From positions 1-56,246 of IMG/VR virus record IMGVR_UViG_3300015164_000001: DNA of 56,246 bases. One strand, given 5' to 3'. The notes beneath the pieces are model-generated. The model was not told the DNA's origin. It ran no database searches and worked only from the letters and a program-made list of their open reading frames with translations. This stretch comes from a virus (lineage: Duplodnaviria > Caudoviricetes). Position numbers and translations under genes: made by a program. How positions within the stretch are numbered: the first letter of the stretch is position 1; each line of letters starts with the position of its first letter. Shown here one piece after another: positions 11,757-49,241 of this stretch.

Positions 11757-12509
11757 ATGCAGACCGACTGCCCGGTGTCGATCCAGGCGTGCGCGCTGCG
11801 CGTCACGCGGCTTGATCCGATCACCCGGCGCCCGGTCGACGGCAGCGACGCGGCCTACATCACCAACGCGTTCACGGAGTTCCGCTTCAGCCCCGAGACC
11901 GACCCCGGAACGCTGATCGAGACGCGGACCTCCTGCGGCGACCTCCGGCGCTACCGCGATCCGGAGACGGTGAAGGGATTATCGGTAGCGCTCATCACCG
12001 AAGGCCCCGACCCCGAATTGCACGAGCTGCTGGTGGGCGCATCACTCATCGCGTCGGCCGGCGCGACCATCGGCATGAACGGCCAGCGCTTCGGTGCGGT
12101 GCCCAATCACGTCTCACTCGAAGTGTGGTCCAAGGCGGTCGTTGGGGGACGGCAGGCGAGCGTTCTGCCATGGCTCCATTGGGCGTTCCCTGACGTGGTG
12201 GTCCAGATCGGTGAGCGTCTCTTGGACAACGGGCAAGCATTACAGCCCTTCACCGGCTTCGCCATCGAGAATCCCCTCTGGGGCCAGGGTGCCTTCAACG
12301 ACTGGCCGCCAGGAGGGACGCCGCTGCTCTCGGCGTGGGGCGTCACGCGGTCGGCCACGCTACCCACGAGCACCTGCGGCTACGTCAGCGTGACGAACGC
12401 CTCGGGCCTCGACGGCGGCGTGGTGCCCGCGGCCTACATCCGCACCGTTGACGCCGGCGCGCCGACCACGACCACATTTGCTACGAAGTACGACGGAGGT
12501 TCGCCATGA
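11757..12509 (+). CDS. Second major tail protein paralog with C-terminal DGG extension
   Basis: Collinear with 11073..11744; extra tail LDGG...DAGAP...YDGGSP. Confidence 0.75.
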   Translation: MQTDCPVSIQACALRVTRLDPITRRPVDGSDAAYITNAFTEFRFSPETDPGTLIETRTSCGDLRRYRDPETVKGLSVALITEGPDPELHELLVGASLIASAGATIGMNGQRFGAVPNHVSLEVWSKAVVGGRQASVLPWLHWAFPDVVVQIGERLLDNGQALQPFTGFAIENPLWGQGAFNDWPPGGTPLLSAWGVTRSATLPTSTCGYVSVTNASGLDGGVVPAAYIRTVDAGAPTTTTFATKYDGGSP

Positions 12510-14074
12510 CGGCCGGCCCTGATCTGATCCAATTGCGACGAGGGACCAACGCTCAGTGGGCGGCGGCGAATCCCGTGCTCGCCGCGGGGGAGAAGGGGGT
12601 CACTCTCGACGCGCCGCTGATCGAGAAGACCGGCGATGGGGTGACCGCGTGGAGCGCGTTGCCGGTTACGGGAACGGCGACGTTTGAGGCAGGTATCGGG
12701 ACGGTCCTTTACGTTGATCCAGCGGGCAGCGATGCCAACTCGGGAAAGATTCAGGCGTTACCGAAGCAGACCATCGCAGCGGCTATCGCCGCCTTAGCGG
12801 GTGGGGTTGGAGAGATTCGCCTAACTCCCAACGCCAGTTTCACACCGGCAGCCGGGATCACCTTTGACGTGGCGAAGGTGCGGATCGTCGGAAAGAAGAA
12901 CGTCCTTGATTTCTCTGCCCTGGTGGAGGGGACGGCGGTAGCTCTCACAAGTTCTGCCAATGCTGGTGGCGCTTCCTACAACCTGCGGTCGGCTGGTCCG
13001 CCTCTACGGGGCGTGGAGATAATCGGCTCTAGCCGAACCAATGCAGTTACGGGCCTATCCGTTGCCGCTGGTGCTGGCAACGAACTAGCCCACATCAAGG
13101 TCACCGACGATGTGGTCGTGCATGGATTCGGCACCGGGTTATCGCTCGGTTCCAACGCCCACAACCTTGAGTTCGGAATCAGTATCTACTCATGCGGTCA
13201 CGACATTGACGACGCGGCTGCCGTTGCCAACGCTGGCGAGCGGATCGTGTTTGTGGGTGGGGCGTTCTTCAACTCTCTGCTCGTCGGTTACTTCCGCAAC
13301 GGGTCGGCCGATTATGTCTTTCTCGGGTCGTCGTTTGACTACAACGTGGCCATATTCGATATCAATGGCCCGCCCGTCACTTGTTCGGGATGCCACACCG
13401 AAGGGAATGACGCCAACTACGGGGCTAACTACCCCTTCGTGATCGCAGGCACAGGCAGCCTCGCCTACGAGGGCGGCATTATCACCGGCCCCGTCAATAA
13501 CATTCCCGCCTATGTGAACTGCACGGGCGCGAGTGCTCGGGCCTCATTTGTAGACATTCGGCTAAATTGGGCCAACGCTTCGGCCGCACCGTTCTCTGTC
13601 GGAACGGGCGCTTGTATGAAGTCCACCGTTCAAACGCTTCGGCCTTTCGCTAAGAACACAGCGACAGCGGACACGGTGTTGCCGACAGCGGTGGTAACGA
13701 CTGTCGCCCTCGGCAACACGATCATCGACACCGAAAAGTTCTACGCAGCGGGTCAACCGAACCGACTCACGGCGCCCGCTCCAGGCTTCTACGAAGTGAA
13801 GCTCAGTTGCACCATGACCAACGCAGCAGGTGGCACCGTGCGTCAAATATGGGGCGCTATCAACGGGAGCGATGCGGCAAGGGTCGGGCAACTGCAAACC
13901 TTCCCGACAGCGGCTGGCGACTTCACCTACCGAGCGAGCGAGGTTGTGTACCTCAACACGGGGGACTATGTAGAACTTCACGTTTTTCACGACCAAGGCG
14001 GCAACCTTGCCGCCAAAGGGACTGGCGGCGGGGTCAACTGTCCTCCCGCTATCTCACTGTTGAGGGTTTCGTGA
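12506..14074 (+). CDS. Tail fibre/spike, putative beta-helical depolymerase
   Basis: N-terminal IQLRRGTNAQWAAANPVLAAGEKG module, LYVDPAGSDANSG, G/N/S-rich beta-helix-like body, C-terminal YLNTGDYVEL beta-sandwich. Confidence 0.7.
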   Translation: MTAGPDLIQLRRGTNAQWAAANPVLAAGEKGVTLDAPLIEKTGDGVTAWSALPVTGTATFEAGIGTVLYVDPAGSDANSGKIQALPKQTIAAAIAALAGGVGEIRLTPNASFTPAAGITFDVAKVRIVGKKNVLDFSALVEGTAVALTSSANAGGASYNLRSAGPPLRGVEIIGSSRTNAVTGLSVAAGAGNELAHIKVTDDVVVHGFGTGLSLGSNAHNLEFGISIYSCGHDIDDAAAVANAGERIVFVGGAFFNSLLVGYFRNGSADYVFLGSSFDYNVAIFDINGPPVTCSGCHTEGNDANYGANYPFVIAGTGSLAYEGGIITGPVNNIPAYVNCTGASARASFVDIRLNWANASAAPFSVGTGACMKSTVQTLRPFAKNTATADTVLPTAVVTTVALGNTIIDTEKFYAAGQPNRLTAPAPGFYEVKLSCTMTNAAGGTVRQIWGAINGSDAARVGQLQTFPTAAGDFTYRASEVVYLNTGDYVELHVFHDQGGNLAAKGTGGGVNCPPAISLLRVS

Positions 14075-14404: not shown

Positions 14405-15346
14405 ATGGACCGTGCCTCTGACCGTACTGTCGCCCTCGTCCCGATCGTCGTATCCCCGGGCGAGCGACGTTCGTCGTCGTCGTATCAACTCGCCAAGCTC
14501 GGCTGGCTGAGCCAGTTCTCGGCCACCACCCGCGAGACGTATGAAGTCAAGATGCGGATCTGGGAACGCTGGTGCACGGCGCACGCCCTCGATCCGCTCG
14601 GCGCCACCCGCGCCGTCATCCAGACCTTCGGTGTCGACCTCGAGCAACGGGGCCTCATGCCGGCCACGCGCGCGAGCTATCTCTGCACCCTGAAGTCGTT
14701 CTATGGCTGGTGTGAGGAGGAGGAGGTCATCGACCGCAACCCGGCGAGTCGCGTTCGGCTACCGACGATCGAGGACCACGTCCAGCGCCCCTACCTCGAC
14801 CGGCCCGAAGCCGCCCGGTTCCTGGCCGCCGCCCAGGTGACTCGGATCGACCTGCGCCTGCGTGACCATGCCCTTGCTTGTATCCTCGTCCTGAATGGTT
14901 TGCGGGTGTCGGGGCTGTGCGACCTCAACATCGAGACAATGAACCACGAACGCGGCCACCAGACGATCGTCGTCACGACCAAGGGCAGCCGAATCCAGAC
15001 GATCCCGATGGCTCCAATGACGTACTGGGCGCTGATGGCCTACATCGGCGAACGCACGCACGGCCCGGTATTCCTCGGCGCCAACGGCAAACGCATCACC
15101 CGCGAGACGGTCCGTCACCGCGTGCAGGCGATCACGCGCAAGGCCGGCATCAACAAACGCCTATCGCCGCACTCTTGTCGGAGGTCGTTCGTGACCGGGG
15201 CCCTCGACGCCGGCGTGCCACTGCGCGATGTCCAGGCCGCGGCGATGCACAAATCGGCGGCGACCACGGAAACCTATGACCAAGGGCGCAAGTCGCTGGA
15301 TGCTCACCCGACCTACGTGCTCGGCGGTCACTTCTCCGGCGGCTGA
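14405..15346 (+). CDS. Tyrosine recombinase/integrase (XerD-like)
   Basis: GLRVS (R), KG, HSCRR (HxxR), H, ETY (Y); N-terminal SAM-like domain with LKSFY and NPA. Confidence 0.92.
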   Translation: MDRASDRTVALVPIVVSPGERRSSSSYQLAKLGWLSQFSATTRETYEVKMRIWERWCTAHALDPLGATRAVIQTFGVDLEQRGLMPATRASYLCTLKSFYGWCEEEEVIDRNPASRVRLPTIEDHVQRPYLDRPEAARFLAAAQVTRIDLRLRDHALACILVLNGLRVSGLCDLNIETMNHERGHQTIVVTTKGSRIQTIPMAPMTYWALMAYIGERTHGPVFLGANGKRITRETVRHRVQAITRKAGINKRLSPHSCRRSFVTGALDAGVPLRDVQAAAMHKSAATTETYDQGRKSLDAHPTYVLGGHFSGG

Positions 15347-27243: not shown

Positions 27244-27716
27244 CCCAACGGCCGCGCTCCCGCCACGTCATCGCGGCCGGCGCGTTCGTTGTCGCCTCCT
27301 CCGTTGGTGCAGCCGCGGTCTCCATGCATCACGGGCCGGCGCCGGTGCTCGCCACCATCCCCGGCGCGCTGAATCCCGACGTGACCCAGAGCAATGTGGG
27401 CGTGACCATCTGCGTCCCGAACTGGACCGCATCGGTCCGCCCATCATCGGGCTACACGTCCTCGCTCAAACAGCAGCAGATGGCCGACCTCGGCTACCGC
27501 GACCGCGACCCGAGTCATTTTGAGGAGGATCATCTCGTCCCGCTCGGTGCTGGCGGCCAGCCGACCGCGCCATCGAATCTGTGGCCCCAACCACGAGGTC
27601 AGGCCAAGCGCGACGACCCGCTCGAGACCAAGATCCAGCGGGCCATCTGCGCCGGCCAGATCACCTTGGCGGAGGGCCAGCGCCAGATCACCGACTACAA
27701 ACGCCGTAACGGATAA
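27240..27716 (+). CDS. Exported HNH-like protein
   Basis: Signal-like N-terminus; TIC, EEDHLVPLGAGG...NLWPQ, C.G.I.L..GQ..I. Confidence 0.7.
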   Translation: MTQRPRSRHVIAAGAFVVASSVGAAAVSMHHGPAPVLATIPGALNPDVTQSNVGVTICVPNWTASVRPSSGYTSSLKQQQMADLGYRDRDPSHFEEDHLVPLGAGGQPTAPSNLWPQPRGQAKRDDPLETKIQRAICAGQITLAEGQRQITDYKRRNG

Positions 27717-27728
27717 GGAGCCCCAGCC

Positions 27729-27983
27729 ATGAGCACCAAGCCCGCATCCCTCCTCGCGACCGAGCCCGTCGCCATCATCGGCGCACTCATGGCGTTTCTG
27801 CAGTCGGCGTTCGTCGTGGTGTCCGTGTTCAATATCGTGACCCTCGACGGCCAACAGCAGGCGGCCGTCCAAGGGCTCCTGACGACGGGCCTCGGGCTGA
27901 TCGGCGCGTTCTACGCTCGGGGCAAGTCCGTGTCGCGGGCCACCCTCGACCAGCTCGGCAATGGGGCACCACCCGCGCCGTAG
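27729..27983 (+). CDS. Holin
   Basis: EPV, two TM helices, R..V C-terminus typical of actinophage holins. Confidence 0.7.
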   Translation: MSTKPASLLATEPVAIIGALMAFLQSAFVVVSVFNIVTLDGQQQAAVQGLLTTGLGLIGAFYARGKSVSRATLDQLGNGAPPAP

Positions 27984-31076: not shown

Positions 31077-31288
31077 CGACCTATGTGCTGGTCGAAGTCG
31101 GATGCATCGAGTGCGGGGATGACACGCTCGTCCGTGCGCTGACCGACGAGCTGCCCGCCGATGCGCTTGTCGTCCATCCCGGTGACAGCGTGGAACTGAC
31201 CTACCACGCCTCGCTGATCGCGATCCCCGTCACACCCGAGGCGCAAAATCCGAGCATGGCCCCTTCCCCGAAAGAGAGCACCCAATGA
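31073..31288 (+). CDS. Hypothetical protein
   Basis: GGAGG SD; GCIECG. Confidence 0.6.
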   Translation: MTTYVLVEVGCIECGDDTLVRALTDELPADALVVHPGDSVELTYHASLIAIPVTPEAQNPSMAPSPKESTQ

Positions 31289-32193: not shown

Positions 32194-32819
32194 TCGGGGC
32201 CAGTGAGGCGGATCCGCCGCCGCCTCCTGGCCCCGAACCCCCGAAGGTCGAGCAGCTCGTCGAGAACCTCGAAACCGCCGCCGCCGCGGCCAAGGAAGCC
32301 CGCGAGGCTCAGATTCGCCCTGAGACGCCCCAGGAGCCGAGCGCGCCAACCACCGCGCCCGAGGCCCCCGAGAGCCACAGCGGCGAAATCCCGGCCCGAT
32401 CCGAGGCGAATCGCTGCGCCTGCGGTGACACTGGTTCGATCAAGGGCGAGCGATGCCCGTTCTGTGAGATGCCCCCTTGTCGCTTCTGCGGCTCCGTCGA
32501 CGAGCCGCGGGCATGGTGCGGATCCGAGCTCGGCATGGCCGACGACATCGCCGACCCCCGCGCCGAGTGCGTCGACGAGAAGGCGTGCGCGGTGCGGGAT
32601 GCCATCGCCTCCGCCCCCGACGGCGAGTACACGCCGGCACCGAGCGATGACCCGACATCGGCACCCGAGGCCTGCCCGCTCTGCCATAGCTCACGCGCCA
32701 CGCTGGTGTTCGTCCCGCCGACCCACCTCGAGGATTCCGGCCAGTGGCGTTGCCAGAACGGGTCCGCCTGTAAAAGCCGCCAACAGTTGGCCCAGGCGCG
32801 GGAATCATTGGGCGAATGA
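32190..32819 (+). CDS. Cys-rich hypothetical protein
   Basis: Several CxxC pairs. Confidence 0.55.
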   Translation: MIGASEADPPPPPGPEPPKVEQLVENLETAAAAAKEAREAQIRPETPQEPSAPTTAPEAPESHSGEIPARSEANRCACGDTGSIKGERCPFCEMPPCRFCGSVDEPRAWCGSELGMADDIADPRAECVDEKACAVRDAIASAPDGEYTPAPSDDPTSAPEACPLCHSSRATLVFVPPTHLEDSGQWRCQNGSACKSRQQLAQARESLGE

Positions 32820-33064
32820 GAGAGCGGCCCACCTGGATGATCTATGGAAACTGCGTGGGTCTCGCCCCGGCCACGTTCTACCCATCGCCGCACGACCTGA
32901 CCGGCGAACTCATGGCGAAGGCGATCTGCGCCGAGTGCCCGGTTCTGTCTCCGTGCCGAACGTACGCCCTAGACAACGACGAATCGGGCGTTTGGGGGAT
33001 GACGAGCGAGGCGGAGCGGCGCGCGATGACGAAGCGGACTAAGAAGCTCCTGCGGGCACAGTGA
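32816..33064 (+). CDS. whiB: WhiB family transcription factor
   Basis: C...AK.IC..CPV...C...GVWG..SE.ERR. Confidence 0.92.
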   Translation: MRERPTWMIYGNCVGLAPATFYPSPHDLTGELMAKAICAECPVLSPCRTYALDNDESGVWGMTSEAERRAMTKRTKKLLRAQ

Positions 33065-39505: not shown

Positions 39506-39522
39506 GTCCAACGCGCTAGAGT
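39506..39522 (+). promoter_or_regulatory. 17-bp motif copy 7
   Basis: 7 nt before ATG 39530, which opens a 9-codon minigene. Confidence 0.75.
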
Positions 39523-40561: not shown

Positions 40562-40794
40562 GTGGCGGCCACGAGTCCGGTCGAGGGCATCGGCGTGGTC
40601 GAAGCGATGACGCCGCCCGCTCGCGTACTTCCGCCGTTCGATTACCTCACCGGGCTGGCGTCAACCAAACGGATCTGCGGTGAGCCGCTCGTCGTTGCCT
40701 CGGGTGCCGAGGGCGTGGTTCTCAGATCGTCATCGGTCTACGTCTGCACGAAGCCGGACCCGTGCCCATTGCATCCACGAAAGGGAGAACGACG

Positions 40795-41067
40795 ATGGCC
40801 TATCCAGTGACCGAAACATGCCACGACTGCGGGGTCGAGTATCCGTACCCCGTCAGCCACCATCACGTCGACGAGGAGTGCCAAGCCAATCAAAAGGCAG
40901 ATCGGTCGGAGCTGCTTGCCACCCTAGGCATCGACTTCGACGCCACCGAGGCTGAGGTGCTCGAAGAAATACGTAACAACATCTTTCGTGGACCGCTGTC
41001 AACGCTAGGGGCTAAGGGCGCAGGCGAGATCGCTAACGCCGTCTGGCGTAAGGCGTTGGAGGGGTGA
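40795..41067 (+). CDS. Hypothetical protein
   Basis: GGGAG SD; CHDC. Confidence 0.55.
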   Translation: MAYPVTETCHDCGVEYPYPVSHHHVDEECQANQKADRSELLATLGIDFDATEAEVLEEIRNNIFRGPLSTLGAKGAGEIANAVWRKALEG

Positions 41068-41627
41068 CGGGCTACGGCAAAGATGTTGGCGCGGTAGAGG
41101 CGGTATCGCTGCACTGGCGACTGCTCCTAACTCGCGTGCCCTACTACTGGAGGCACCGCCGGTGGATCGGCCTGGCGCGGTCGGTGCTCTGGTTCGTCCT
41201 CGGTCACTGTGGCGAAGACTGCATGGAGTGCGGAAGTCGCTACCGGCTCTGGTGGTCGCCGCAGCCGTTGTGGAACGAACTCATGCCCTCTACCGGAGGG
41301 CTGCTGTGTCTGGATTGCTTTGACGCCAAGGCCAAGGCAAAAGGCATTCTCGTCCACTGGTCGCCAATTGTCGTCAGCCGCAACAAAGTGCCAACAACGA
41401 ATCATTGGTCCGATCCGGTGCGAGATCGGCTGCTGGTCGGGGACCTAGATCCTGACTCGTACGAGCGCGGTCCGGCTCCTATCTGGCAGACGGTCGGTGA
41501 CGCGCTCGGTTGGGATCTGCCGTCCTACTATTACGACGGCGCGTTCCCGCGTAGCGAACGAATCTGTTCTGAGCCTTCCATCGTCGAGCAAAATGCGATG
41601 GGCGTGCGAACGGGCACGCCGTGGTAG
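41064..41627 (+). CDS. Hypothetical Zn-ribbon protein
   Basis: GGAGG SD; CMECG...LW...G.LC..CF. Confidence 0.6.
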   Translation: MTGYGKDVGAVEAVSLHWRLLLTRVPYYWRHRRWIGLARSVLWFVLGHCGEDCMECGSRYRLWWSPQPLWNELMPSTGGLLCLDCFDAKAKAKGILVHWSPIVVSRNKVPTTNHWSDPVRDRLLVGDLDPDSYERGPAPIWQTVGDALGWDLPSYYYDGAFPRSERICSEPSIVEQNAMGVRTGTPW

Positions 41628-41647
41628 GCACAAACCGAGGCGCAGCC

Positions 41648-41911
41648 ATGAGCGCCCGCTACGTCGAGCATGGTCCGCTCTCATATCAGCAGCACACCGA
41701 CTGGCGATGCTCCACGGCGGCATGGCGGCGAGGGAAGTGGCGGCCTGTCGTAAGCGTTCGCTTCGGCCGCGCTGCCAAGCCGGCGATCGGCATCTTCCTC
41801 GACAGGGACGAGGAAGGGACGTGGATGCTCGCCATCGCAGGGATCGTGTTCGATGTGATGGCCCAACTGACGGGACCGTGGCAAGTGACACACACCGAGG
41901 CGCAGCCATGA
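41648..41911 (+). CDS. Cassette ORF 1 (ends VTHTEAQP)
   Basis: Starts and ends in junction repeats. Confidence 0.65.
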   Translation: MSARYVEHGPLSYQQHTDWRCSTAAWRRGKWRPVVSVRFGRAAKPAIGIFLDRDEEGTWMLAIAGIVFDVMAQLTGPWQVTHTEAQP

Positions 41912-42114
41912 GCATGAACGACGGGCGCACCAGGCCGCGATCGGCAGAACTCGACGCGGTAGGGGCTGAGTTGCTCAACCTACGAGCGGAGAACGAACGT
42001 CTGCTTTTTCTGCTCGACGAGGCGCATGGCGTCGTAACTGGCTGTCGGGAGTGGCGCTGCGGTTGCAAGAGCGAGGCGCTGTTCTACCTGGCACAAACCG
42101 CGGCGCAGCCATGA
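41908..42114 (+). CDS. Cassette ORF 2 (ends AQTAAQP)
   Basis: Starts and ends in junction repeats. Confidence 0.65.
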   Translation: MSMNDGRTRPRSAELDAVGAELLNLRAENERLLFLLDEAHGVVTGCREWRCGCKSEALFYLAQTAAQP

Positions 42115-42386
42115 AGTGTCGATGCGTCTGGCATGGCGTCAATTGCAAAAAGGACGCTACCCAAGAGGACGGACTGTGTGACTGGTGCGGTGAGCGTCGA
42201 GTCGATGACTTGAAGAACAACCCGTTCGCCATGTGGAGTATGCACGGCGAGTTTCTTGGCCTCGGTGGCGGCACCGCTACCGGCTACAACCACCAAGCCG
42301 GTTGGGACTCAATCCCTGACAGCGTTCGGCCAACGGCCTGCTGGATGGAACAGAAGCAAGTGACGCACACCGAGGCGCAGCCATGA
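42111..42386 (+). CDS. Cassette ORF 3, Cys-rich (ends VTHTEAQP)
   Basis: Starts and ends in junction repeats. Confidence 0.65.
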   Translation: MKCRCVWHGVNCKKDATQEDGLCDWCGERRVDDLKNNPFAMWSMHGEFLGLGGGTATGYNHQAGWDSIPDSVRPTACWMEQKQVTHTEAQP

Positions 42387-42649
42387 GCGACTTCTACAGC
42401 ACTGAGGCGCGGGAGAACACGCTGAAGGCTCTTGACGACGCTGCCGAACTCCGCTCGCCCGATCTCGTGGTCGGCTTGCAGCGCGAGCGAGTGCCGATAA
42501 TGACCTACGCCGACGCTTACTACTGGTCGTGCCGGGTGTGCGGCTGGCTAGGAACGGGCCTCGGATCAATCGACTCAGCACAGGCCGAGGGCGCCACACA
42601 TTGGCGCGGCGAGCACGCACGCGAGTTCGACATCGAGGCGCAGCCATGA
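42383..42649 (+). CDS. Cassette ORF 4 (ends IEAQP)
   Basis: C..CGW...H motif; junction repeats. Confidence 0.65.
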   Translation: MSDFYSTEARENTLKALDDAAELRSPDLVVGLQRERVPIMTYADAYYWSCRVCGWLGTGLGSIDSAQAEGATHWRGEHAREFDIEAQP

Positions 42650-42882
42650 GCGCCTACACGCCGCCGGACCTGCATCCTGGGCGGTGTCTGAATCACCGCA
42701 TGGTGGGGACCGAAGTGCTGCGTTGTATCGACTACGAGAACGCCGAGCATGTCTGCCACTTCATCGTGCCGACACACACGATAACGAGCGGGCATCTTGG
42801 TCCTTCGACCATCTACTACAAGCGCCCAGCCGAGCCGTGGGTCAAGCCTGGCGACCTGACACAAACCGAGGCGCAGCCATGA
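42646..42882 (+). CDS. Cassette ORF 5 (ends LTQTEAQP)
   Basis: Starts and ends in junction repeats. Confidence 0.65.
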   Translation: MSAYTPPDLHPGRCLNHRMVGTEVLRCIDYENAEHVCHFIVPTHTITSGHLGPSTIYYKRPAEPWVKPGDLTQTEAQP

Positions 42883-43166
42883 GCGCCTATCCCGCTGACG
42901 AGGACTTCGTGGTCGACATCGGCGACCGCCACTTCCTGATGGAGTGGGGAACGTCTGATCCACCGTTCGAGGTTGTCGGCTACCTGTGGCACCACGACGG
43001 GCCGACGCCACGGTGCAGGTCGTGGGGTTGGTTCGGGCGCAAGGACGGCAAAGAGTCGGGGCATCGCATTGTGTCGCACGACCCGCTCACCGTCGAAGGC
43101 TCGCTGATCTGCGAGGACTGTGGCGACCACGGATTCATTCGCGAAGGGCGATGGGTGAAGGCATGA
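42879..43166 (+). CDS. Cassette ORF 6, Zn-binding-like
   Basis: PLTV..SL.C..CG.HGFIR.GRW motif. Confidence 0.7.
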   Translation: MSAYPADEDFVVDIGDRHFLMEWGTSDPPFEVVGYLWHHDGPTPRCRSWGWFGRKDGKESGHRIVSHDPLTVEGSLICEDCGDHGFIREGRWVKA

Positions 43167-43351
43167 GCCGAGTGTCCGCGCTACGAGAGCAGGCCCGTGA
43201 GGCCGCCAAGCAACGCTATCTAGCGCCTCCGTGGCAAGAACTGGCGAGTGAAAGTGCCGATGCCGCCAGCGACGTGTGGCAGCCCGAGGTCGAACGCCTG
43301 CGTGCGGCGCTGGCATCGAAAGTGACACAAACCGAGGCGAGTGCGGAATGA
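43163..43351 (+). CDS. Cassette ORF 7 (ends VTQTEASAE)
   Basis: Shares ADAASDVWQPEVERLRA with 49248..49757. Confidence 0.6.
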   Translation: MSRVSALREQAREAAKQRYLAPPWQELASESADAASDVWQPEVERLRAALASKVTQTEASAE

Positions 43352-43569
43352 CCGTCGACCCCGAAGTCACGGACCACCGCCTGCGCACCCCGCCGAGCCT
43401 GACCGACCGAGACAAGGCGGTCGGACTCCGTTGCCCGTCGCGCTCCCCCGCGCTTGGTCTGCCCTGCGCCCGCGTGCCGCACCTGGCCGAGGAGCACCAC
43501 GTCGGCGCGATCGCGGATCAGAGGACTACGCCGCCGACGCTGCTGTGGTATCGGTGGTCCGATGGCTGA
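43348..43569 (+). CDS. Hypothetical protein
   Basis: ATGA overlap. Confidence 0.5.
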   Translation: MTVDPEVTDHRLRTPPSLTDRDKAVGLRCPSRSPALGLPCARVPHLAEEHHVGAIADQRTTPPTLLWYRWSDG

Positions 43570-43807
43570 CGAGGGCGATGCCGAGGCCATCCTGAATGCT
43601 CTACGGGGACGACCGAGGCGCCTGCCGTGGGCCACTTACAGCGGTAACGGCTATCGGCGTGTCGATCGGGGCGCCATCGCATCAAACGAGGTTGCTAGAG
43701 CACGGGGCCGCGCGCTGTCCCGCTTGAAGGCTGCTCATCCCGACGAGTTCGAGCGGTACTACATCGACGAGCAGTGGAAGATCGCTGCCACGGATGCGTC
43801 AGCATGA
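43562..43807 (+). CDS. Hypothetical protein
   Basis: RAR.RAL.RL...H.DEF..YY motif. Confidence 0.6.
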   Translation: MADEGDAEAILNALRGRPRRLPWATYSGNGYRRVDRGAIASNEVARARGRALSRLKAAHPDEFERYYIDEQWKIAATDASA

Positions 43808-44172
43808 TCCGCCGCCGTAAGCCCCTCGCGCGCACCGCCCTGAAGCGCACGCGAAGGACGCGCATCGCGCCAGTCAGTGCCAAGCGCGCGGCACTGGCCG
43901 ACGAACGGCGCGCCTTCGTGGCCGAGATCCTGCACAAGCGCGCCTGGTGCGAAGCCTGCCTGGCGCTGTCGGGCCATGACCGCGTGGTGAACATCCGCCA
44001 TGCCGTCGACGTGCATGAACGCTGGACCCGCGCGCAAGGCGGGCCGATCGTCCCGAGCCAAGGACTGACGCCGGAGATGGTCGTCGCCGTCTGTCGTCAG
44101 TGCCACGATTACATCCACGACCACCCCGCCGCGGCCATCCAGCTCGGTTTGTTGCGCGGCGTCCTCGGATGA
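43804..44172 (+). CDS. HNH-like nuclease
   Basis: CEAC, DVHE...R.QGG, VCRQCHDYIH.HP..A...GLL. Confidence 0.7.
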   Translation: MIRRRKPLARTALKRTRRTRIAPVSAKRAALADERRAFVAEILHKRAWCEACLALSGHDRVVNIRHAVDVHERWTRAQGGPIVPSQGLTPEMVVAVCRQCHDYIHDHPAAAIQLGLLRGVLG

Positions 44173-44531
44173 TGACCACCTGCCCCCATGGCGACCCGAC
44201 GTGCCCGTGTCCCGACTTCGTTGAGGGCCGGTACGACCCATGTCACTACGAAGGCGCGGACGCGATGGAGTGCCCGACGATCCCGAACATGACGGCGATC
44301 GGAGCCTGGGCGCACTGCCACGTCGAGGGGTGCTCATGGCGAGCCAGCGTCAGAGGCGGTCGCACCATCGGCGAGTGTGGCCTGATAAAGCTCGGGCTAC
44401 CGCCTGCGATGGTGACACCTGATGGCGAACGGGTTTGGTCGATGACCCAGGCGCGGCCGGGACTGATCGGGTGGGCGTGTGGATGGTTGCGGACGCCGCT
44501 GAACGTTGGATGGCGGGAGGTACCTGAGTGA
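44169..44531 (+). CDS. Cys-rich hypothetical protein
   Basis: CPH.DP.CPC.D...CHYE. Confidence 0.55.
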   Translation: MMTTCPHGDPTCPCPDFVEGRYDPCHYEGADAMECPTIPNMTAIGAWAHCHVEGCSWRASVRGGRTIGECGLIKLGLPPAMVTPDGERVWSMTQARPGLIGWACGWLRTPLNVGWREVPE

Positions 44532-44688
44532 CCATCCCCAAGCGCTGCGAGAAATGCCGTCGCCGGCTGTTCGACGGCGAGTACCACATCTGTGAGCGCG
44601 AGGACGCCCCGAAGCCCAAGCCACCGCGCAAGAACACCACGGGTGAGCTACGCCCTCGCCGGCCCCTGAGCGCTCAGTGGATCGACGA

Positions 44689-45969
44689 ATGAGCTACGCC
44701 GGGAGTGCCATCGTCATCCGCGGCAACGCCTCCTGCCTGCCACTACCGGACGCGTCGATAGACATGATTTGCACCTCGCCTCCATATTTCGCCCTGCGTA
44801 GCTATCGCGACGGCGACGAGCACTACGACGGCCAGGTCGGCTCCGAGGCCACACCACAGGCGTTCCTCGAGGCACTGTGGGCCTGCACTGCGGAATGGTG
44901 GCGCGTGCTCAAGCCGACCGGGTCGCTGTGGGTCAATCTCGGCGACAAGTACGCGGGGAGCGGTGGCCACAACAACTCAGGGATCAGCGACAAGAGCACG
45001 CTGCGAGGGAATGGACACGTCGGCGGCGTAGGCGAGGCGGGCCCGACCAAGATCAAGTCGACGCTGCGCTCGGCTCCTGACCGCTACAACCAGGAGAGCG
45101 ACGGCATCCGCCCGAAGTCGCTCATGGGCCTGCCGTGGCGCTACGCCATCGGGTGCATCGACCGCGGGTGGATACTGCGACGCGACCTCGTGTGGAGCAA
45201 GCCCAACGGATTACCGGAGAGCGTCACCGACCGCTGCCGCTCGAGCCACGAGTACTGGTTTCATCTCACGAAGCAGGGGCGCTACTTCGCGGCGATGGAT
45301 GAGCTGCGGGAGGAACTAGCACCCAAGACGCTGACTCATCGCGGTGGCGGCGAATCATGGGGCAACGAATCGAACCCGGACAACAACTGGGGCGACGCCA
45401 AGGTTCGCACGCCTGACGCTAGGGGCAAGCTCCCCGGCTCGGTGTGGACGATCCCGATGGAGCCGCTGACGATCTCCGACGACGTGCGGGCGCACTACAA
45501 CCTGCCCGACCACTTCGCCGCCTTTCCTCAGGAGTGGCCGCGGCGGCTGATCCTCGGGTGGTCGCCGTCGGGCATCTGCGTCGAGTGTGGCGAGGGGCGG
45601 CGGCCGGTGGCATCGAAGGAGCTTGTCGGCGGGTCGCCAAAGGGCGAGCGGGACTACCGACGGCTTGCCAATGGGAGCAACGGCGGCGTGGAACGTCCGC
45701 TGCCTGGCGGAAGCAACGAGGTCACCATCACCGGCTACGCCTGCGCGTGTCCGACGCCGGACGCACCGAGCCGCCCAGCGGTCATCCTCGACCCCTTCGG
45801 CGGCACGGGCACTACCGCGGGCGTAGCGCGCACGCTCGGGCGCATCGGCATCTCCGTGGACCTGAGCATGGACTACTGCCGCCTCGCGAAGTGGAGGATC
45901 TTCCGCTCGGGCCACTTCGCCAAGACCGAGACCCGCACCCACGCCGACCGCGCGCAGGTGCTCTTCTAG
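44689..45969 (+). CDS. N4-C/N6-A DNA methyltransferase (beta class)
   Basis: TSPPY, NLGD, W.KPN..PESVTDR, HFAAFP, LDPFGGTGTT. Confidence 0.92.
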   Translation: MSYAGSAIVIRGNASCLPLPDASIDMICTSPPYFALRSYRDGDEHYDGQVGSEATPQAFLEALWACTAEWWRVLKPTGSLWVNLGDKYAGSGGHNNSGISDKSTLRGNGHVGGVGEAGPTKIKSTLRSAPDRYNQESDGIRPKSLMGLPWRYAIGCIDRGWILRRDLVWSKPNGLPESVTDRCRSSHEYWFHLTKQGRYFAAMDELREELAPKTLTHRGGGESWGNESNPDNNWGDAKVRTPDARGKLPGSVWTIPMEPLTISDDVRAHYNLPDHFAAFPQEWPRRLILGWSPSGICVECGEGRRPVASKELVGGSPKGERDYRRLANGSNGGVERPLPGGSNEVTITGYACACPTPDAPSRPAVILDPFGGTGTTAGVARTLGRIGISVDLSMDYCRLAKWRIFRSGHFAKTETRTHADRAQVLF

Positions 45970-46082: not shown

Positions 46083-46559
46083 ATGCCCCAACGCGCGTTC
46101 TACAGCGATGAGCAACGTGCCGAAGCGTTGCGGCTCTACGAAGAGGTAGGCCCAGCCGAAGCCTCCCGCCGCTGCGGTGTCCCGAATGCGACCATCCGGT
46201 CATGGGCGAGCCGCGCCGGCCTTGGCAACAGTGGTGAACCGAAAACCCTCCCCGCTCGCCAGCGTGCTTTGGAGCGATGGGAGACGAGACGGCTGACCGC
46301 GGCCGACGAGTTCGGGGACGCGGCGGCGCAGATGCGCGAGCACGCGCTCAAGGCGGCCAAGGCCAAGGATGAGAAGATGCTTCGGGCCTCGGCGGTGGCC
46401 GCCGGGATCTTCACTGACAAGGCTCAGCTCCTGAGCGGCAACCCGACGGAACGACTGGACTGGGCCAAGCAGGCGACGAGCGACGAGCGAGCCCAACGCC
46501 TCGCCGGCCTGGTGGATGAACTGGCAAAGCGGCGGGAGGCCAAAGCCGCCGAGCAGTGA
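46083..46559 (+). CDS. Terminase small subunit (HTH)
   Basis: N-terminal HTH, GI..DK..LL.G.PT; directly upstream of the large subunit; TACTCT at 46069. Confidence 0.75.
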   Translation: MPQRAFYSDEQRAEALRLYEEVGPAEASRRCGVPNATIRSWASRAGLGNSGEPKTLPARQRALERWETRRLTAADEFGDAAAQMREHALKAAKAKDEKMLRASAVAAGIFTDKAQLLSGNPTERLDWAKQATSDERAQRLAGLVDELAKRREAKAAEQ

Positions 46560-47929
46560 CCACCGCGGAAGCCCTGGCCGCGCTCCTGCCTTATGCCACC
46601 CCCGACGAACTGAACGAACTGGACCTGCTTGTTGCCTTGGCCGAGGAGGACCGGCGCCGAGCCGAGTCCGAAGCCCCCGAGCGCGGACGATGGGAACCCC
46701 TGCCCCATCAGATTCCACCCGAAGGCGACTGGCGCTACTGGATGCTCCTCGCCGGCCGTGGCTCGGGCAAAACCGACGCCTGCGCGGCGTACTTCGACGA
46801 CTACCTGAGCACCCACCCCGGCGAGCGCGGGCGCATCATCGCTCCGACGATCGGTGACGCGCGAGAGGCGTGCGTGGAAGGGCCATCGGGCATCCTGGCC
46901 CACAATCGGTCTGTCCAGTTCAATCGGTCATGGGGAGAGCTCACCTGGCCCAACGGTGCCCGGGCCCGGATCTTCGGCGCCTTCACGCCGAACGACGTAG
47001 AGCGTCTGCGCGCTGGCGGCAATGCGAACCTCGACTGGTACGAGGAACTGGCGGCTTGGCGGCAGATGGAGGATGCATGGCGACAAGCCGACCTCGGATT
47101 GCGCCTCGGCTGGCGACCGCATGGGGTCATCTCGACCACGCCCAAGCCGCGCCCGCTCATCCGTCGCCTGGTGGAGCAGTTCGCCAATGGTGATCCCCTG
47201 GTGGCGATCACGAAGGCGGCGACCTACGACAACCCCCATCTGGATGCCTCGGTGCGCGAGCGGTTCCGCCAGCAGTACGAGGGGACGCGCCTCGGGCGCC
47301 AGGAGTTGGACGCCGAGATCCTCGAGGACGTAGAAGGCGCTCTGTGGTCATGGGAGATGCTCGAAAAGCCGGGCGCGCGCATCCTGCCAGGGGAGGCACC
47401 GGGAATGCGGCGGGTGGTCGTGGCCGTCGACCCGTCCTGGGGCACGACGCACGACGAGTGCGGGATCGTCGTCGCGGGTGTGGGCTTCGACGGTCGTGGC
47501 TATGTGCTGGACGACCGCTCAGCGCGCACGACACCATCGGCCTGGGGCGCCATTGTGAAGGACGCTTATCACCATTGGGAGGCCGATCGCATCCTGGCCG
47601 AGGTCAACTTCCAAGCCGAGCAGGTGCGTCTCGTCATGCAAACGACCGACCCCCATCTGCCCTATCAGGAGCTACGGGTGAGCCGCTCCAAGGTGCTCCG
47701 GGCCGAGCCCGTTGTCGCGCTCTACGAGCAAGGGCGCGTGAGTCACGTCGGGCGCTTCGCCGGCCTGGAGCAGCAGATGACGGAATGGGTGCCCGGAGAG
47801 TCCGACATCTCGCCGGACCGCGTCGACGCGCTGGTGTTCGCCCTCTCCGCGCTCATGCTCGACGCAGGTGGGCCGGGCGGATCGGCGGCGGACTATCTCG
47901 CCAACGCGGCTTCGTGGAGGCGGCGCTGA
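46556..47929 (+). CDS. Terminase large subunit
   Basis: AGRGSGKT, YEELAAW, STTPKP, RQEL, VAVDP, SPDRVDA. Confidence 0.95.
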   Translation: MTTAEALAALLPYATPDELNELDLLVALAEEDRRRAESEAPERGRWEPLPHQIPPEGDWRYWMLLAGRGSGKTDACAAYFDDYLSTHPGERGRIIAPTIGDAREACVEGPSGILAHNRSVQFNRSWGELTWPNGARARIFGAFTPNDVERLRAGGNANLDWYEELAAWRQMEDAWRQADLGLRLGWRPHGVISTTPKPRPLIRRLVEQFANGDPLVAITKAATYDNPHLDASVRERFRQQYEGTRLGRQELDAEILEDVEGALWSWEMLEKPGARILPGEAPGMRRVVVAVDPSWGTTHDECGIVVAGVGFDGRGYVLDDRSARTTPSAWGAIVKDAYHHWEADRILAEVNFQAEQVRLVMQTTDPHLPYQELRVSRSKVLRAEPVVALYEQGRVSHVGRFAGLEQQMTEWVPGESDISPDRVDALVFALSALMLDAGGPGGSAADYLANAASWRRR

Positions 47930-49224: not shown

Positions 49225-49241
49225 GTCCAACGCGCTAGAGT
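49225..49241 (+). promoter_or_regulatory. 17-bp motif copy 8
   Basis: 6 nt before ATG 49248. Confidence 0.75.

Follow-up and report, generated by a model that had tools for sequence, protein, structure and literature searches.

Integron attC/IntI arrays consist of rows of promoter-less, co-oriented and unrelated small genes split by a repeated element, and the attC site itself, 55-141 nt long, is an imperfect palindrome able to fold in single-stranded form. Elements of other kinds are described in phages. In Cluster K mycobacteriophages, the start-associated sequences (SAS) reported by Pope et al. (2011; PMC3203893) are short asymmetric repeats with a Shine-Dalgarno core before an ATG, which lie in one orientation, among non-structural genes and before genes of different families, and which hold conserved positions unexplained by rRNA pairing. 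As described there, they number 11-19 copies across the right arm, the non-structural half, are mostly intergenic and are shared in conserved form by related phages. In T4-type phages, the PeSL cassettes reported by Arbiol et al. (2010; PMC2839356) are expression signals repeated between ORFan genes that are small and non-essential. Each PeSL is a unit of a sigma-70-like promoter plus terminator stem-loop, transcriptional in function and intergenic in position, and recombination between copies reshuffles or removes genes, mini-circles and exchange having been shown in that study. The linkers of modular theory, as cited in PMC3029335, are short stretches of homology at gene boundaries through which homologous recombination between mosaic modules could be guided, and according to the same source such boundary sequences are unfindable at most mosaic boundaries. 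Translational coupling at ATGA overlaps has likewise been documented (Huber et al. 2019; PMC6728339).

In the window, by which the whole analysed stretch of 56,246 nucleotides is meant, six or seven unrelated small genes of a soil phage are joined by one short stretch of DNA, here called the linker. The genes are the following.

41064..41627, + strand: gene g0, 187 aa, Cys-rich, no family, adjoining the array upstream
41648..41911, + strand: gene A, 87 aa, the conserved part of its family ending at TGPW
41908..42114, + strand: gene B, 68 aa, no family found
42111..42386, + strand: gene C, 91 aa, Cys-rich family, 38 homologues
42383..42649, + strand: gene D, 88 aa, 2 homologues
42646..42882, + strand: gene E, 78 aa, no family, no isolate-phage match
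42879..43166, + strand: gene F, 95 aa, related to DUF6527, no linker after it
43163..43351, + strand: gene G, 62 aa, its C-terminus VTQTEASAE formed by the left half of the linker

GC3 exceeded GC2 in all 10 called frames. Each linker copy comprises the final 7-9 codons of the gene before it, a ribosome-binding site and an ATGA stop/start overlap, with the variations given below.

41622..41655, + strand: copy 1, before gene A; TAG of g0 at 41625-41627, after which the frame continues AQTEAQP-stop
41882..41914, + strand: copy 2, A/B junction; tail VTHTEAQP, GAGG, ATGA at 41908-41911
42085..42116, + strand: copy 3, B/C junction; tail LAQTAAQP, GCGG replacing GAGG, ATGA at 42111-42114
42357..42390, + strand: copy 4, C/D junction; identical to copy 2 at 32 of 33 nt
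42621..42653, + strand: copy 5, D/E junction; right half intact, left half divergent, tail FDIEAQP
42854..42886, + strand: copy 6, E/F junction; tail LTQTEAQP
43320..43351, + strand: partial copy 7, G/H junction; left half retained as far as GAGGCG, right half an unrelated 12 nt ending in ATGA

The original prediction described six near-complete copies and one partial copy of a repeat joining small ORFs, spaced about 200-270 bp apart. Both statements were confirmed: the copies occupy consecutive gene junctions at 41622-43351 on the + strand, and the ATG codons at 41648, 41908, 42111, 42383, 42646 and 42879 are separated by 260, 203, 272, 263 and 233 bp. The copies are 25-33 nt long and near-identical in six cases, the seventh being a left half that precedes the ATG at 43348. 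A search with a 25-mer, permitting up to 3 mismatches, returned five + strand matches (41630, 41890, 42365, 42628 and 42861), while none of 100 shuffles contained any match. With the 15-mer core GAGGCGCAGCCATGA and up to 2 mismatches, seven matches were obtained against 0.31 expected, the array accounting for six (42100 among them) and position 27718 for the other; this count was reached in 0 of 100 shuffles. The partial seventh copy was listed at 43306-43350 by a repeat search of the window. An nhmmer profile built from the six copies and run on the 56-kb contig recovered all six at E <= 6.3e-8 and the left half of copy 7 (43320-43339) at E 0.024; no further copy was found in the rest of the contig, where the next match had an E value of 0.36. 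The repeat is absent from the F/G junction (43163), and the other ATGA and GTGA junctions of the contig hold sequences unlike the linker. A left-only copy (copy 7) and a right-only copy (copy 5) are both present in the array.

In the full copies, all on the + strand, GAGG stands 7 nt before the ATG (-12 to -9), with GCGG in its place in copy 3; the arrangement GAGG-7 nt-ATGA is in register at six junctions, and every start is an ATG. It had been proposed that a copy supplies the C-terminus of the upstream gene, its TGA and the next ATG, which holds for five of the six full copies and fails for copy 1, where a TAG 21 nt ahead of the ATG closes the upstream gene and AQTEAQP-stop follows in the same frame. 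At the A/B, B/C, C/D, D/E and E/F junctions, the ATGA overlap with the Shine-Dalgarno site inside the upstream gene displays the anatomy of termination-reinitiation, as in the pairs described in PMC6728339. In the latter, ordinary gene pairs each possess their own junction, whereas in the array a single junction sequence recurs between unrelated genes. Of the automatic coupling that was predicted, the ATGA overlap and the GAGG site provided by the linker are directly visible, and from them we infer the coupling itself.

Signals for transcription were located by scanning, and the nearest upstream promoter-like site is as follows.

39512..39522, + strand: promoter-like motif CGCGCTAGAGT, nearest upstream copy, from a motif scan

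The next copy of CGCGCTAGAGT after 39522 lies at 49231, with none between, which leaves the array without a promoter-like site of its own. Within 41627-43351 the scan found no promoter-like or terminator-like site on the + strand. The only two matches nearby are to consensus on the - strand: a promoter-like site (41394-41367) a short way before the array, and a terminator-like stem (42888-42869) that falls on linker copy 6, the scan totals for the region being at shuffle level. The linker copies share no stem-loop: their consensus fold reached -1.5 kcal/mol with 3 pairs, 0 of them covarying, and single-copy folds were no better than shuffles (z from -1.31 to +1.18), so that a common RNA hairpin in the linker was rejected. 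Rfam families and tRNAs were searched for and none were found. Because the array appears to lack a promoter of its own, translational coupling is, judging from the sequence, the most likely function of the linker.

Comparison with the phage repeats introduced above demonstrates both likeness and difference. As with PeSLs, repeated expression signals lie between small genes; unlike PeSLs, the linker lacks a promoter, a terminator and a stem-loop, and is a translational signal that overlaps the coding sequence. The likeness to SAS extends to the short asymmetric form, the Shine-Dalgarno core before an ATG, the single orientation, the placement among non-structural genes of different families and the conserved positions that rRNA pairing does not explain. 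In contrast to SAS, the linker occurs in six or seven copies at consecutive junctions within 1.7 kb, is coding, gives the upstream protein its tail and carries the ATGA overlap; an inverted repeat like the ESAS of PMC3203893 is absent here. The SAS consensus GGGATAGGAGCCC, with up to 2 deviations, gave 2 matches in the sequence, both on the - strand, against 1.65 expected, and was equalled in 48 of 100 shuffles; membership of SAS by sequence was rejected, since the consensus matches at chance level. Relative to the linkers of modular theory, with which it shares a short homology at gene boundaries, the present sequence differs in occurring seven in a row within one genome and in doubling as a translation signal. 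The linker is best placed, as a new form, among the start-associated or boundary-linker sequences already known, and a literature search found no earlier description of coding junction repeats in phages.

The bodies of the joined genes are unrelated, as had been claimed: with the tails removed, the best BLASTP E value was at least 0.07 in 44 of 45 protein pairs. The sole scoring pair, F against g0, had an E value of 0.005 in the set of 10 sequences and was treated as weak, and paralogy of the gene bodies was rejected. Among 21 + 21 pairs of flanks beyond the linker, none were similar (lowest p 0.10), and a longer duplication between the 3' ends of g0 and A was not significant after the linker was excluded. 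The tail encoded by the linker is present in none of the 4 aligned homologues of gene A, and VTHTEAQP, the tail of C, in none of 25 aligned homologues; one of the two homologues of D has no such tail and the other ends in SEATP, of which EATP is similar. Gene F retains the conserved C-terminus of its own family. No relative of g0 was found in IMG/VR, and none of gene B among the 243 fetched loci, the sole set searched for it. Of the array genes, F alone is present in 80 of the 243 other loci and C alone in 3, while 0 loci contain two of them, and where homologues of C and F occur in other contigs, no other array gene lies within the fetched 4-kb flanks. Since homologues of A and C have no tail, and those of C and F are found alone, the array genes look individually acquired. 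The tail, absent from the homologues of A and C and from one of the two of D, accordingly belongs to the local linker and is foreign to these proteins.

Outside the window, the repeat was sought in other genomes and was found singly; neither a second array nor a close relative of the phage was recovered. Megablast of 41000-44000 against isolate phages gave no match, nor did tblastn of E, C and F against the same set, and the large terminase had a best identity of 52% in IMG/VR (13 loci) and 45.8% in isolates. A linker 17-mer was found in 14 viral stretches, and a 20-mer in 8 metagenome and 11 genome stretches, each with a single copy; no other contig with two copies was found in IMG/VR, JGI metagenomes or GTDB genomes. 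Five contigs with homologues of C or F contained 0-1 loose linker matches. Of 150 matches to the 15-mer core elsewhere, 121 are flanked on both sides by an open frame of at least 40 codons, compared with 16% for ATGA sites as a whole. In 97 unbiased loci, 0 of the 21 GAGG-N7-ATGA candidates use the spacer of the linker, and a general preference for the spacer CNCAGCC was rejected on this basis. The window was the only one of 244 sources (2.1 Mb) with at least three like junctions.

Several readings other than copied junction DNA must be weighed against these results. The C-terminal peptide (V)T(H/Q)TEAQP might itself be selected, as a common tag for degradation, targeting or packaging. Five consecutive proteins do end in EAQP or AAQP, and three genes of an unrelated contig (L015), itself unmatched among isolate phages, have the same EAQP ending, with codons that vary synonymously between GCG and GCC. 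Nevertheless such a tag is very improbable, as copy 1 is perfectly retained although it lies behind a stop codon, differences between copies nearly all change the residue (H/Q, T/A, E/A, V/L) with one silent, the homologues of A and C are without the tail, and only one of the two homologues of D is similar. A purely translational or regulatory start-associated sequence deserves more weight, though it is still rather unlikely. Here a host or phage factor, protein or RNA, would conserve the 25 nt for co-regulation, and recombination would not be involved. The Shine-Dalgarno core just before the ATG, the one orientation, the non-structural genes and the positions unable to pair with rRNA are all as in SAS (PMC3203893), the same 15-mer acts as a junction in many unrelated contigs, and a sequence-specific factor could equally maintain the identity of the copies. 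On the other side, the copies are limited to adjacent junctions within 1.7 kb and are not spread across the early genes, the half copies 7 and 5 still stand at working junctions, no candidate factor is known, and the other ATGA and GTGA junctions of the contig use other sequences.

Two further readings treat the copies as DNA sites for a protein. The original prediction compared the repeat with tyrosine-recombinase sites and integrons, possibly served by the recombinase at 14405 or by an annealing-like protein at 31285; in an integron-like system the repeat would be the core site at which the integrase at 14405, or another enzyme, captures and excises single genes. The only tyrosine recombinase of the contig is this one:

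14405-15346: tyrosine recombinase, XerC/D-like best, 137 bits

The small genes of the array are indeed unrelated, co-oriented and without promoters, copies 2 and 4 coincide with contig breaks, and the inverted pair GGCGC-AGCCATGA-GCGCC around 8 bp was confirmed in copies 1, 5 and 6 and is limited to them. However, the arms are 5 bp long, the right arm is absent in four of the seven copies and corresponds to codons 2-3 of the next gene, and there is no common structure and no fold that beats shuffles. The recombinase lies 27 kb away and scores 38.3 bits against the TIGR02249 integron-integrase cut-off of 265; no IntI-type integrase was found beside the array. With the arms complete in 3 of 7 copies, no shared structure and an XerC/D-like integrase 27 kb off, the recombinase-site reading fails. 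The repeat is also coding and, at 25-33 nt per unit, far below the length of attC, and it forms no attC-like folded site. The annealing label for 31285 was rejected for want of any Pfam, NCBIfam or PDB match: its only PHROG match is a family of unknown function, and an Atlas hint of Rad52-like character is weak and below the reliability bar. No annealing protein emerged from these searches. An integron-like system is accordingly regarded as highly improbable. The same holds for stoperator-like sites, at which a phage repressor would block read-through into terminase and structural genes in the lysogen. Stoperators of Cluster A phages occur throughout the genome and are related to the early-promoter operator. 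In keeping with stoperators, mentioned in PMC3203893, the integrase marks the phage as temperate, and the copies, asymmetric and all pointing one way, lie at gene boundaries with the HNH, methylase and terminase genes downstream. Yet no copy lies at any of 9 promoter-like sites or elsewhere in the contig, and a DNA roadblock would not need the exact stop/start register seen at every copy.

The preferred reading, to which we assign a probability of roughly 0.55, is that of an expression linker that couples unrelated genes and was copied by junction recombination or gene conversion. The linker encodes a tail of 7-9 residues and carries GAGG 7 nt before the ATG and the ATGA overlap, at which a ribosome ending one gene would start the next by termination-reinitiation, such that six or seven unrelated small genes may be translated in a row. 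The array would sit deep within a long operon of a temperate actinobacterial phage. Genes could be inserted, lost or exchanged at an existing junction through short-homology recombination, or the junctions could alternatively be homogenised by gene conversion; in either case all products of recombination would retain frame and coupling. We infer a recombinational origin of the copies, together with the coupling, and propose that their near-identity arose through copying of the junction DNA itself. Copying is favoured over convergence since none of the 21 candidate junctions uses the spacer and only the window holds at least three like junctions.

A bolder form of the copied-linker reading is held tentatively: the linker may be an active cassette-exchange seam, with crossovers inside the 25-33 nt and a form in the source soil in which A is joined to D. 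Either recombination functions encoded by the phage itself or an enzyme so far unrecognised might drive the crossovers. In an independent assembly of the likely source run, contigs end at linker copies 2 and 4, and simulation agrees with a form that joins A directly to D; this is a weak hint. The depth of the contig carrying B and C is 7.8, not below its flanks (8.7 and 7.18), and no recombinant joint between linker copies is listed among the assembled contigs of the run, possibly the source. Runs X2 and X3 of the same study contain next to nothing of the stretch. If the linker is such a seam, every product of exchange would automatically be in frame and translationally coupled. Overall, it looks like a standard expression linker and a possible recombination seam, and not like an integron-like cassette system.

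For annotation, the array is a warning that a common C-terminal motif can be a by-product of the start signal of the next gene and not a feature of the protein. It further offers a counterpart from nature to the standard junctions of synthetic operons. Finally, the array touches the old dispute on phage mosaicism, in which homologous exchange at short linkers is set against random illegitimate joins sorted by selection, and in which linkers are rarely found at mosaic boundaries according to the introduction of PMC3029335. With seven linkers in a row and a role in translation, the linker model becomes directly testable on one small array.

The linker, a repeat of 25-33 nt at the junctions of a series of small genes, is a real and unusual feature of this contig. 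The 25-mer of the original prediction matches five times at ≤3 mismatches and is absent from 100 shuffles, while its inner 15-mer core matches seven times at ≤2 mismatches against 0.31 expected, six of these matches lying inside the array. Searching the contig with a profile made from the full or near-complete copies recovers all six of them (E ≤ 6.3e-8) and, at 43320-43339, one half (the left) of a seventh (E 0.024); the best remaining match has E 0.36, and the repeat is therefore limited to 41622-43351. The genes that it separates are as follows.

Consecutive small genes of the array
41648-41911, gene A
41908-42114, gene B
42111-42386, gene C
42383-42649, gene D
42646-42882, gene E
42879-43166, gene F
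43163-43351, gene G
43348-43569, gene H

Full copies are in the register (G/C)TG-ACA-CA(A/C)-ACC-GAG-GCG-CAG-CCA-TGA, in which the ATG of the next gene overlaps the linker TGA (ATGA) and GAGG stands 7 nt ahead of that ATG. Copy 5, at the D/E junction, comprises the right half of the repeat only, copy 7 (G/H) the left half only, and the F/G junction is without any repeat. Each copy had been described as supplying the upstream C-terminus and stop, a Shine-Dalgarno motif and the next start, which holds for five of the six full copies but not for copy 1. There, the upstream 187-aa gene (g0, 41064-41627) has already ended with a TAG that precedes the ATG by 21 nt, and the same frame continues to AQTEAQP-stop (41625-41651). 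It looks as if g0 once finished in the linker tail and later gained a stop seven codons earlier.

The genes joined in this way have unrelated bodies, as had been proposed: 44 of 45 protein pairs, stripped of the linker-encoded tail, gave a best BLASTP E of at least 0.07, and the exception (F with g0; E 0.005, 35% over 63 residues) is regarded as weak. Third-position G+C exceeded second-position G+C in all ten called frames. Outside the linker, no DNA similarity was detected in 21 upstream and 21 downstream pairs (300 shuffles; lowest p 0.10 and 0.11), and the edges of the repeat are therefore sharp. Homologues were found for four genes, C (38), F (20), D (2) and A (6). The conserved block of the gene C family stops at ...RPTACWME, and VTHTEAQP occurs in none of the 25 homologues aligned from the 38. 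Similarly, the gene A block stops at TGPW, with the tail in 0/4 aligned homologues; the other two of the six matches, proteins of 851 and 1017 residues matching in multiple stretches, were excluded. Of the two gene D homologues, one lacks the tail, and the last residues of the other are SEATP, which may be related to the linker. The C-terminus of gene F is its family's own GDHGFIR-x-G/S/N/M-R/K-W motif, conserved in 13/13 aligned homologues, and F is precisely the gene with no linker after it. Taken together, the C-termini of these homologues indicate that the tail is DNA inserted between genes, not a part of the proteins. Genes C and F both encode widely distributed small phage proteins to which no function is assigned: the unnamed, Cys-rich family of C is marked by an invariant TQED..CDWCG motif, and that of F is related to DUF6527 and counts 109 relatives among viral contigs.

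The window, an entire IMG/VR virus record of 56,246 bases, is linear, with a G+C of 65.8% and an estimated completeness of 74%. Some of its other genes are listed below.

Genes outside the array
14405-15346, tyrosine integrase
32816-33064, WhiB-family transcription factor (PF02467, E 2.9e-16)
44677-45969, N6/N4 methylase
46556-47929, large terminase

PHROG matches add a Gam-like protein, a replication initiator, a DnaC-like loader, a RuvC-like resolvase, a second methyltransferase and an HNH endonuclease. WhiB proteins are not known outside Actinobacteria and their phages, and the WhiB gene supports an actinobacterial host. Among isolate phages, the nearest terminase belongs to Streptomyces phage mu1/6 (45.8% identity). 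Given these two observations, the window is read as a temperate phage with an actinobacterial host. Related terminases in IMG/VR, from 13 loci, reach at most 52% identity; no close relative was present in the isolate-phage or IMG/VR comparisons, and megablast against isolate phages gave no match to the array region. Just upstream of the integrase, a 522-aa protein (12506-14074) carries an Mtd_N domain (major tropism determinant N-terminal, E 6.4e-9) and is probably a receptor-binding tail protein.

When 14 proteins of 40762-44692 were compared with 243 other loci by tblastn, F alone was found in 80 and C alone in 3, and none held two array genes; judged by these loci, the array is a one-off gene combination. 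In three loci with C homologues (L166-L168) the neighbours differ and the junction sequences vary, and in each of five whole contigs that encode a C or F homologue the core has at most one loose match. With one position left free, the 15-mer is found in more than 116 unrelated viral contigs among the matches listed. Of 150 core matches in the fetched loci as a whole, 121 are flanked on both sides by open frames of at least 40 codons, compared with 1742/11016 (16%) of all ATGA sites, suggesting that the core, wherever present, usually acts as a stop/start junction. In a set of 97 loci (738 kb) chosen without regard to the motif, the commonest position of GAGG was at 7-nt spacing, with 21 candidates; the linker spacer appeared in 0/21, which rules out a general preference for it. 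At least three mutually similar ATGA/GTGA junctions (≤3 mismatches over 18 nt upstream) were found in the window alone among 244 sources (2.1 Mb), and the remaining overlapping junctions of the contig have different sequences. Convergence on a good ribosome-binding site as the cause of six near-identical copies is rejected: given the rarity of like junctions and the lack of a spacer preference, the copies would need DNA copying or a sequence-specific function.

Related arrangements were observed in several places. An unrelated viral contig (L015, 4058-4850) contains five ATGA junctions in succession. At three of the five, all within 500 bases, the upstream gene finishes in EAQP-stop with GAGGC(G/C)CAGCCATGA, and a methylase-like gene starts shortly downstream; this can be taken as a looser, independent instance of like junctions in series. 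In the window, the start at 27729 (27697-27732) is preceded by GGAGCCCCAGCCATGA and the upstream gene stops 12 nt earlier, so that one use of the CAGCCATGA context lies beyond the array, at a start that no upstream gene overlaps. Two distant terminase relatives each carry a fourfold motif upstream of terminase, TCGGTCGCCCGA in L027 (1125-2707) and TGGTAGCCATGG in L033 (372-4767).

A site-specific cassette system, in which the linker core would be a recombinase site, is very improbable. Its inverted 5-bp arms do exist, and three of the seven copies have the right arm, which corresponds to codons 2-3 of the gene that follows. No common fold of the seven copies was obtained (consensus -1.5 kcal/mol, 3 pairs, no covariation); copies folded singly gave z-scores of -1.31 to +1.18, with a hairpin in copies 1, 5 and 6 only and a weaker one in copy 4. 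The integrase at 14405, proposed to serve such sites, is XerC/D-like, lies 27 kb from the array and scores 38.3 bits against an integron-integrase model with a cut-off of 265 bits. The annealing-like protein at 31285, the other suggested partner, has a function-unknown family as its sole PHROG match, no Pfam, NCBIfam or PDB match, and a Rad52-like Atlas hint below the reliability bar.

Traces of exchange between copies were sought in Logan contigs. The stretch is present in one run only, possibly the contig's own source and not independent of the window; contigs of that run show 0-1 differences from it, and no joints are listed among them. Their ends coincide with copies 2 and 4: the first contig ends at 41913, the second covers 41884-42365, and the third, which has one difference near its start, begins at 42359 (41884 + 475). 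No 30-mer is repeated in the region, so one-piece assembly is expected at k = 31, which we take to be the Logan setting. Among simulated variants, the three ends were best fitted by adding a form in which the left part of copy 2 continues into the right part of copy 4, gene A being joined to gene D. This fit needs the B-C contig to have lost its 30-nt terminal overlap, and depths of 8.7, 7.8 and 7.18 display no dip across B-C. A hint of an A-to-D form in the source run is therefore all that the simulation offers.

Transcription signals place the linker in context. The motif CGCGCTAGAGT occurs nine times, on the + strand only, a count reached by 0/100 shuffles.

Copies of CGCGCTAGAGT
2965, 4164, 28010, 30662, 35069, 37745, 39512, 49231 and 55415, + strand

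An ATGAC start follows TAGAGT by 6-7 nt in seven of the nine copies, the pattern expected of leaderless-transcript promoters, and a TTGAC-like -35 element accompanies three; the copies look like promoters of leaderless transcripts marking operon starts. None lies between 39522 and 49231, and a consensus scan of the array found neither a promoter nor a terminator on the + strand; thus its genes would lie some 2 kb from the start of a long transcript, with the linker as their sole own signal. An ATGA overlap with an upstream Shine-Dalgarno motif is the documented setting of termination-reinitiation (PMC6728339), and we infer that the linker couples translation.

The reading that we prefer, at a probability of roughly 0.55, is a repeated translational-coupling linker whose copies were made by recombination at gene junctions. 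The main rival, a purely regulatory motif resembling the start-associated sequence (SAS), is unlikely though well ahead of the cassette system. The SAS of Cluster K mycobacteriophages (PMC3203893) is nearest to the linker in function and position, while the PeSL regulatory cassettes of T4-type phages (PMC2839356) and the boundary linkers of modular theory (PMC3029335) are nearest in proposed evolutionary role. Unlike all three, the present linker is coding, includes a stop/start overlap, leaves a tail on each upstream protein and occupies consecutive junctions. Under the coupling reading, it would act as a stop/start unit that couples the translation of successive genes, and its copies would have arisen through recombination where those genes meet.
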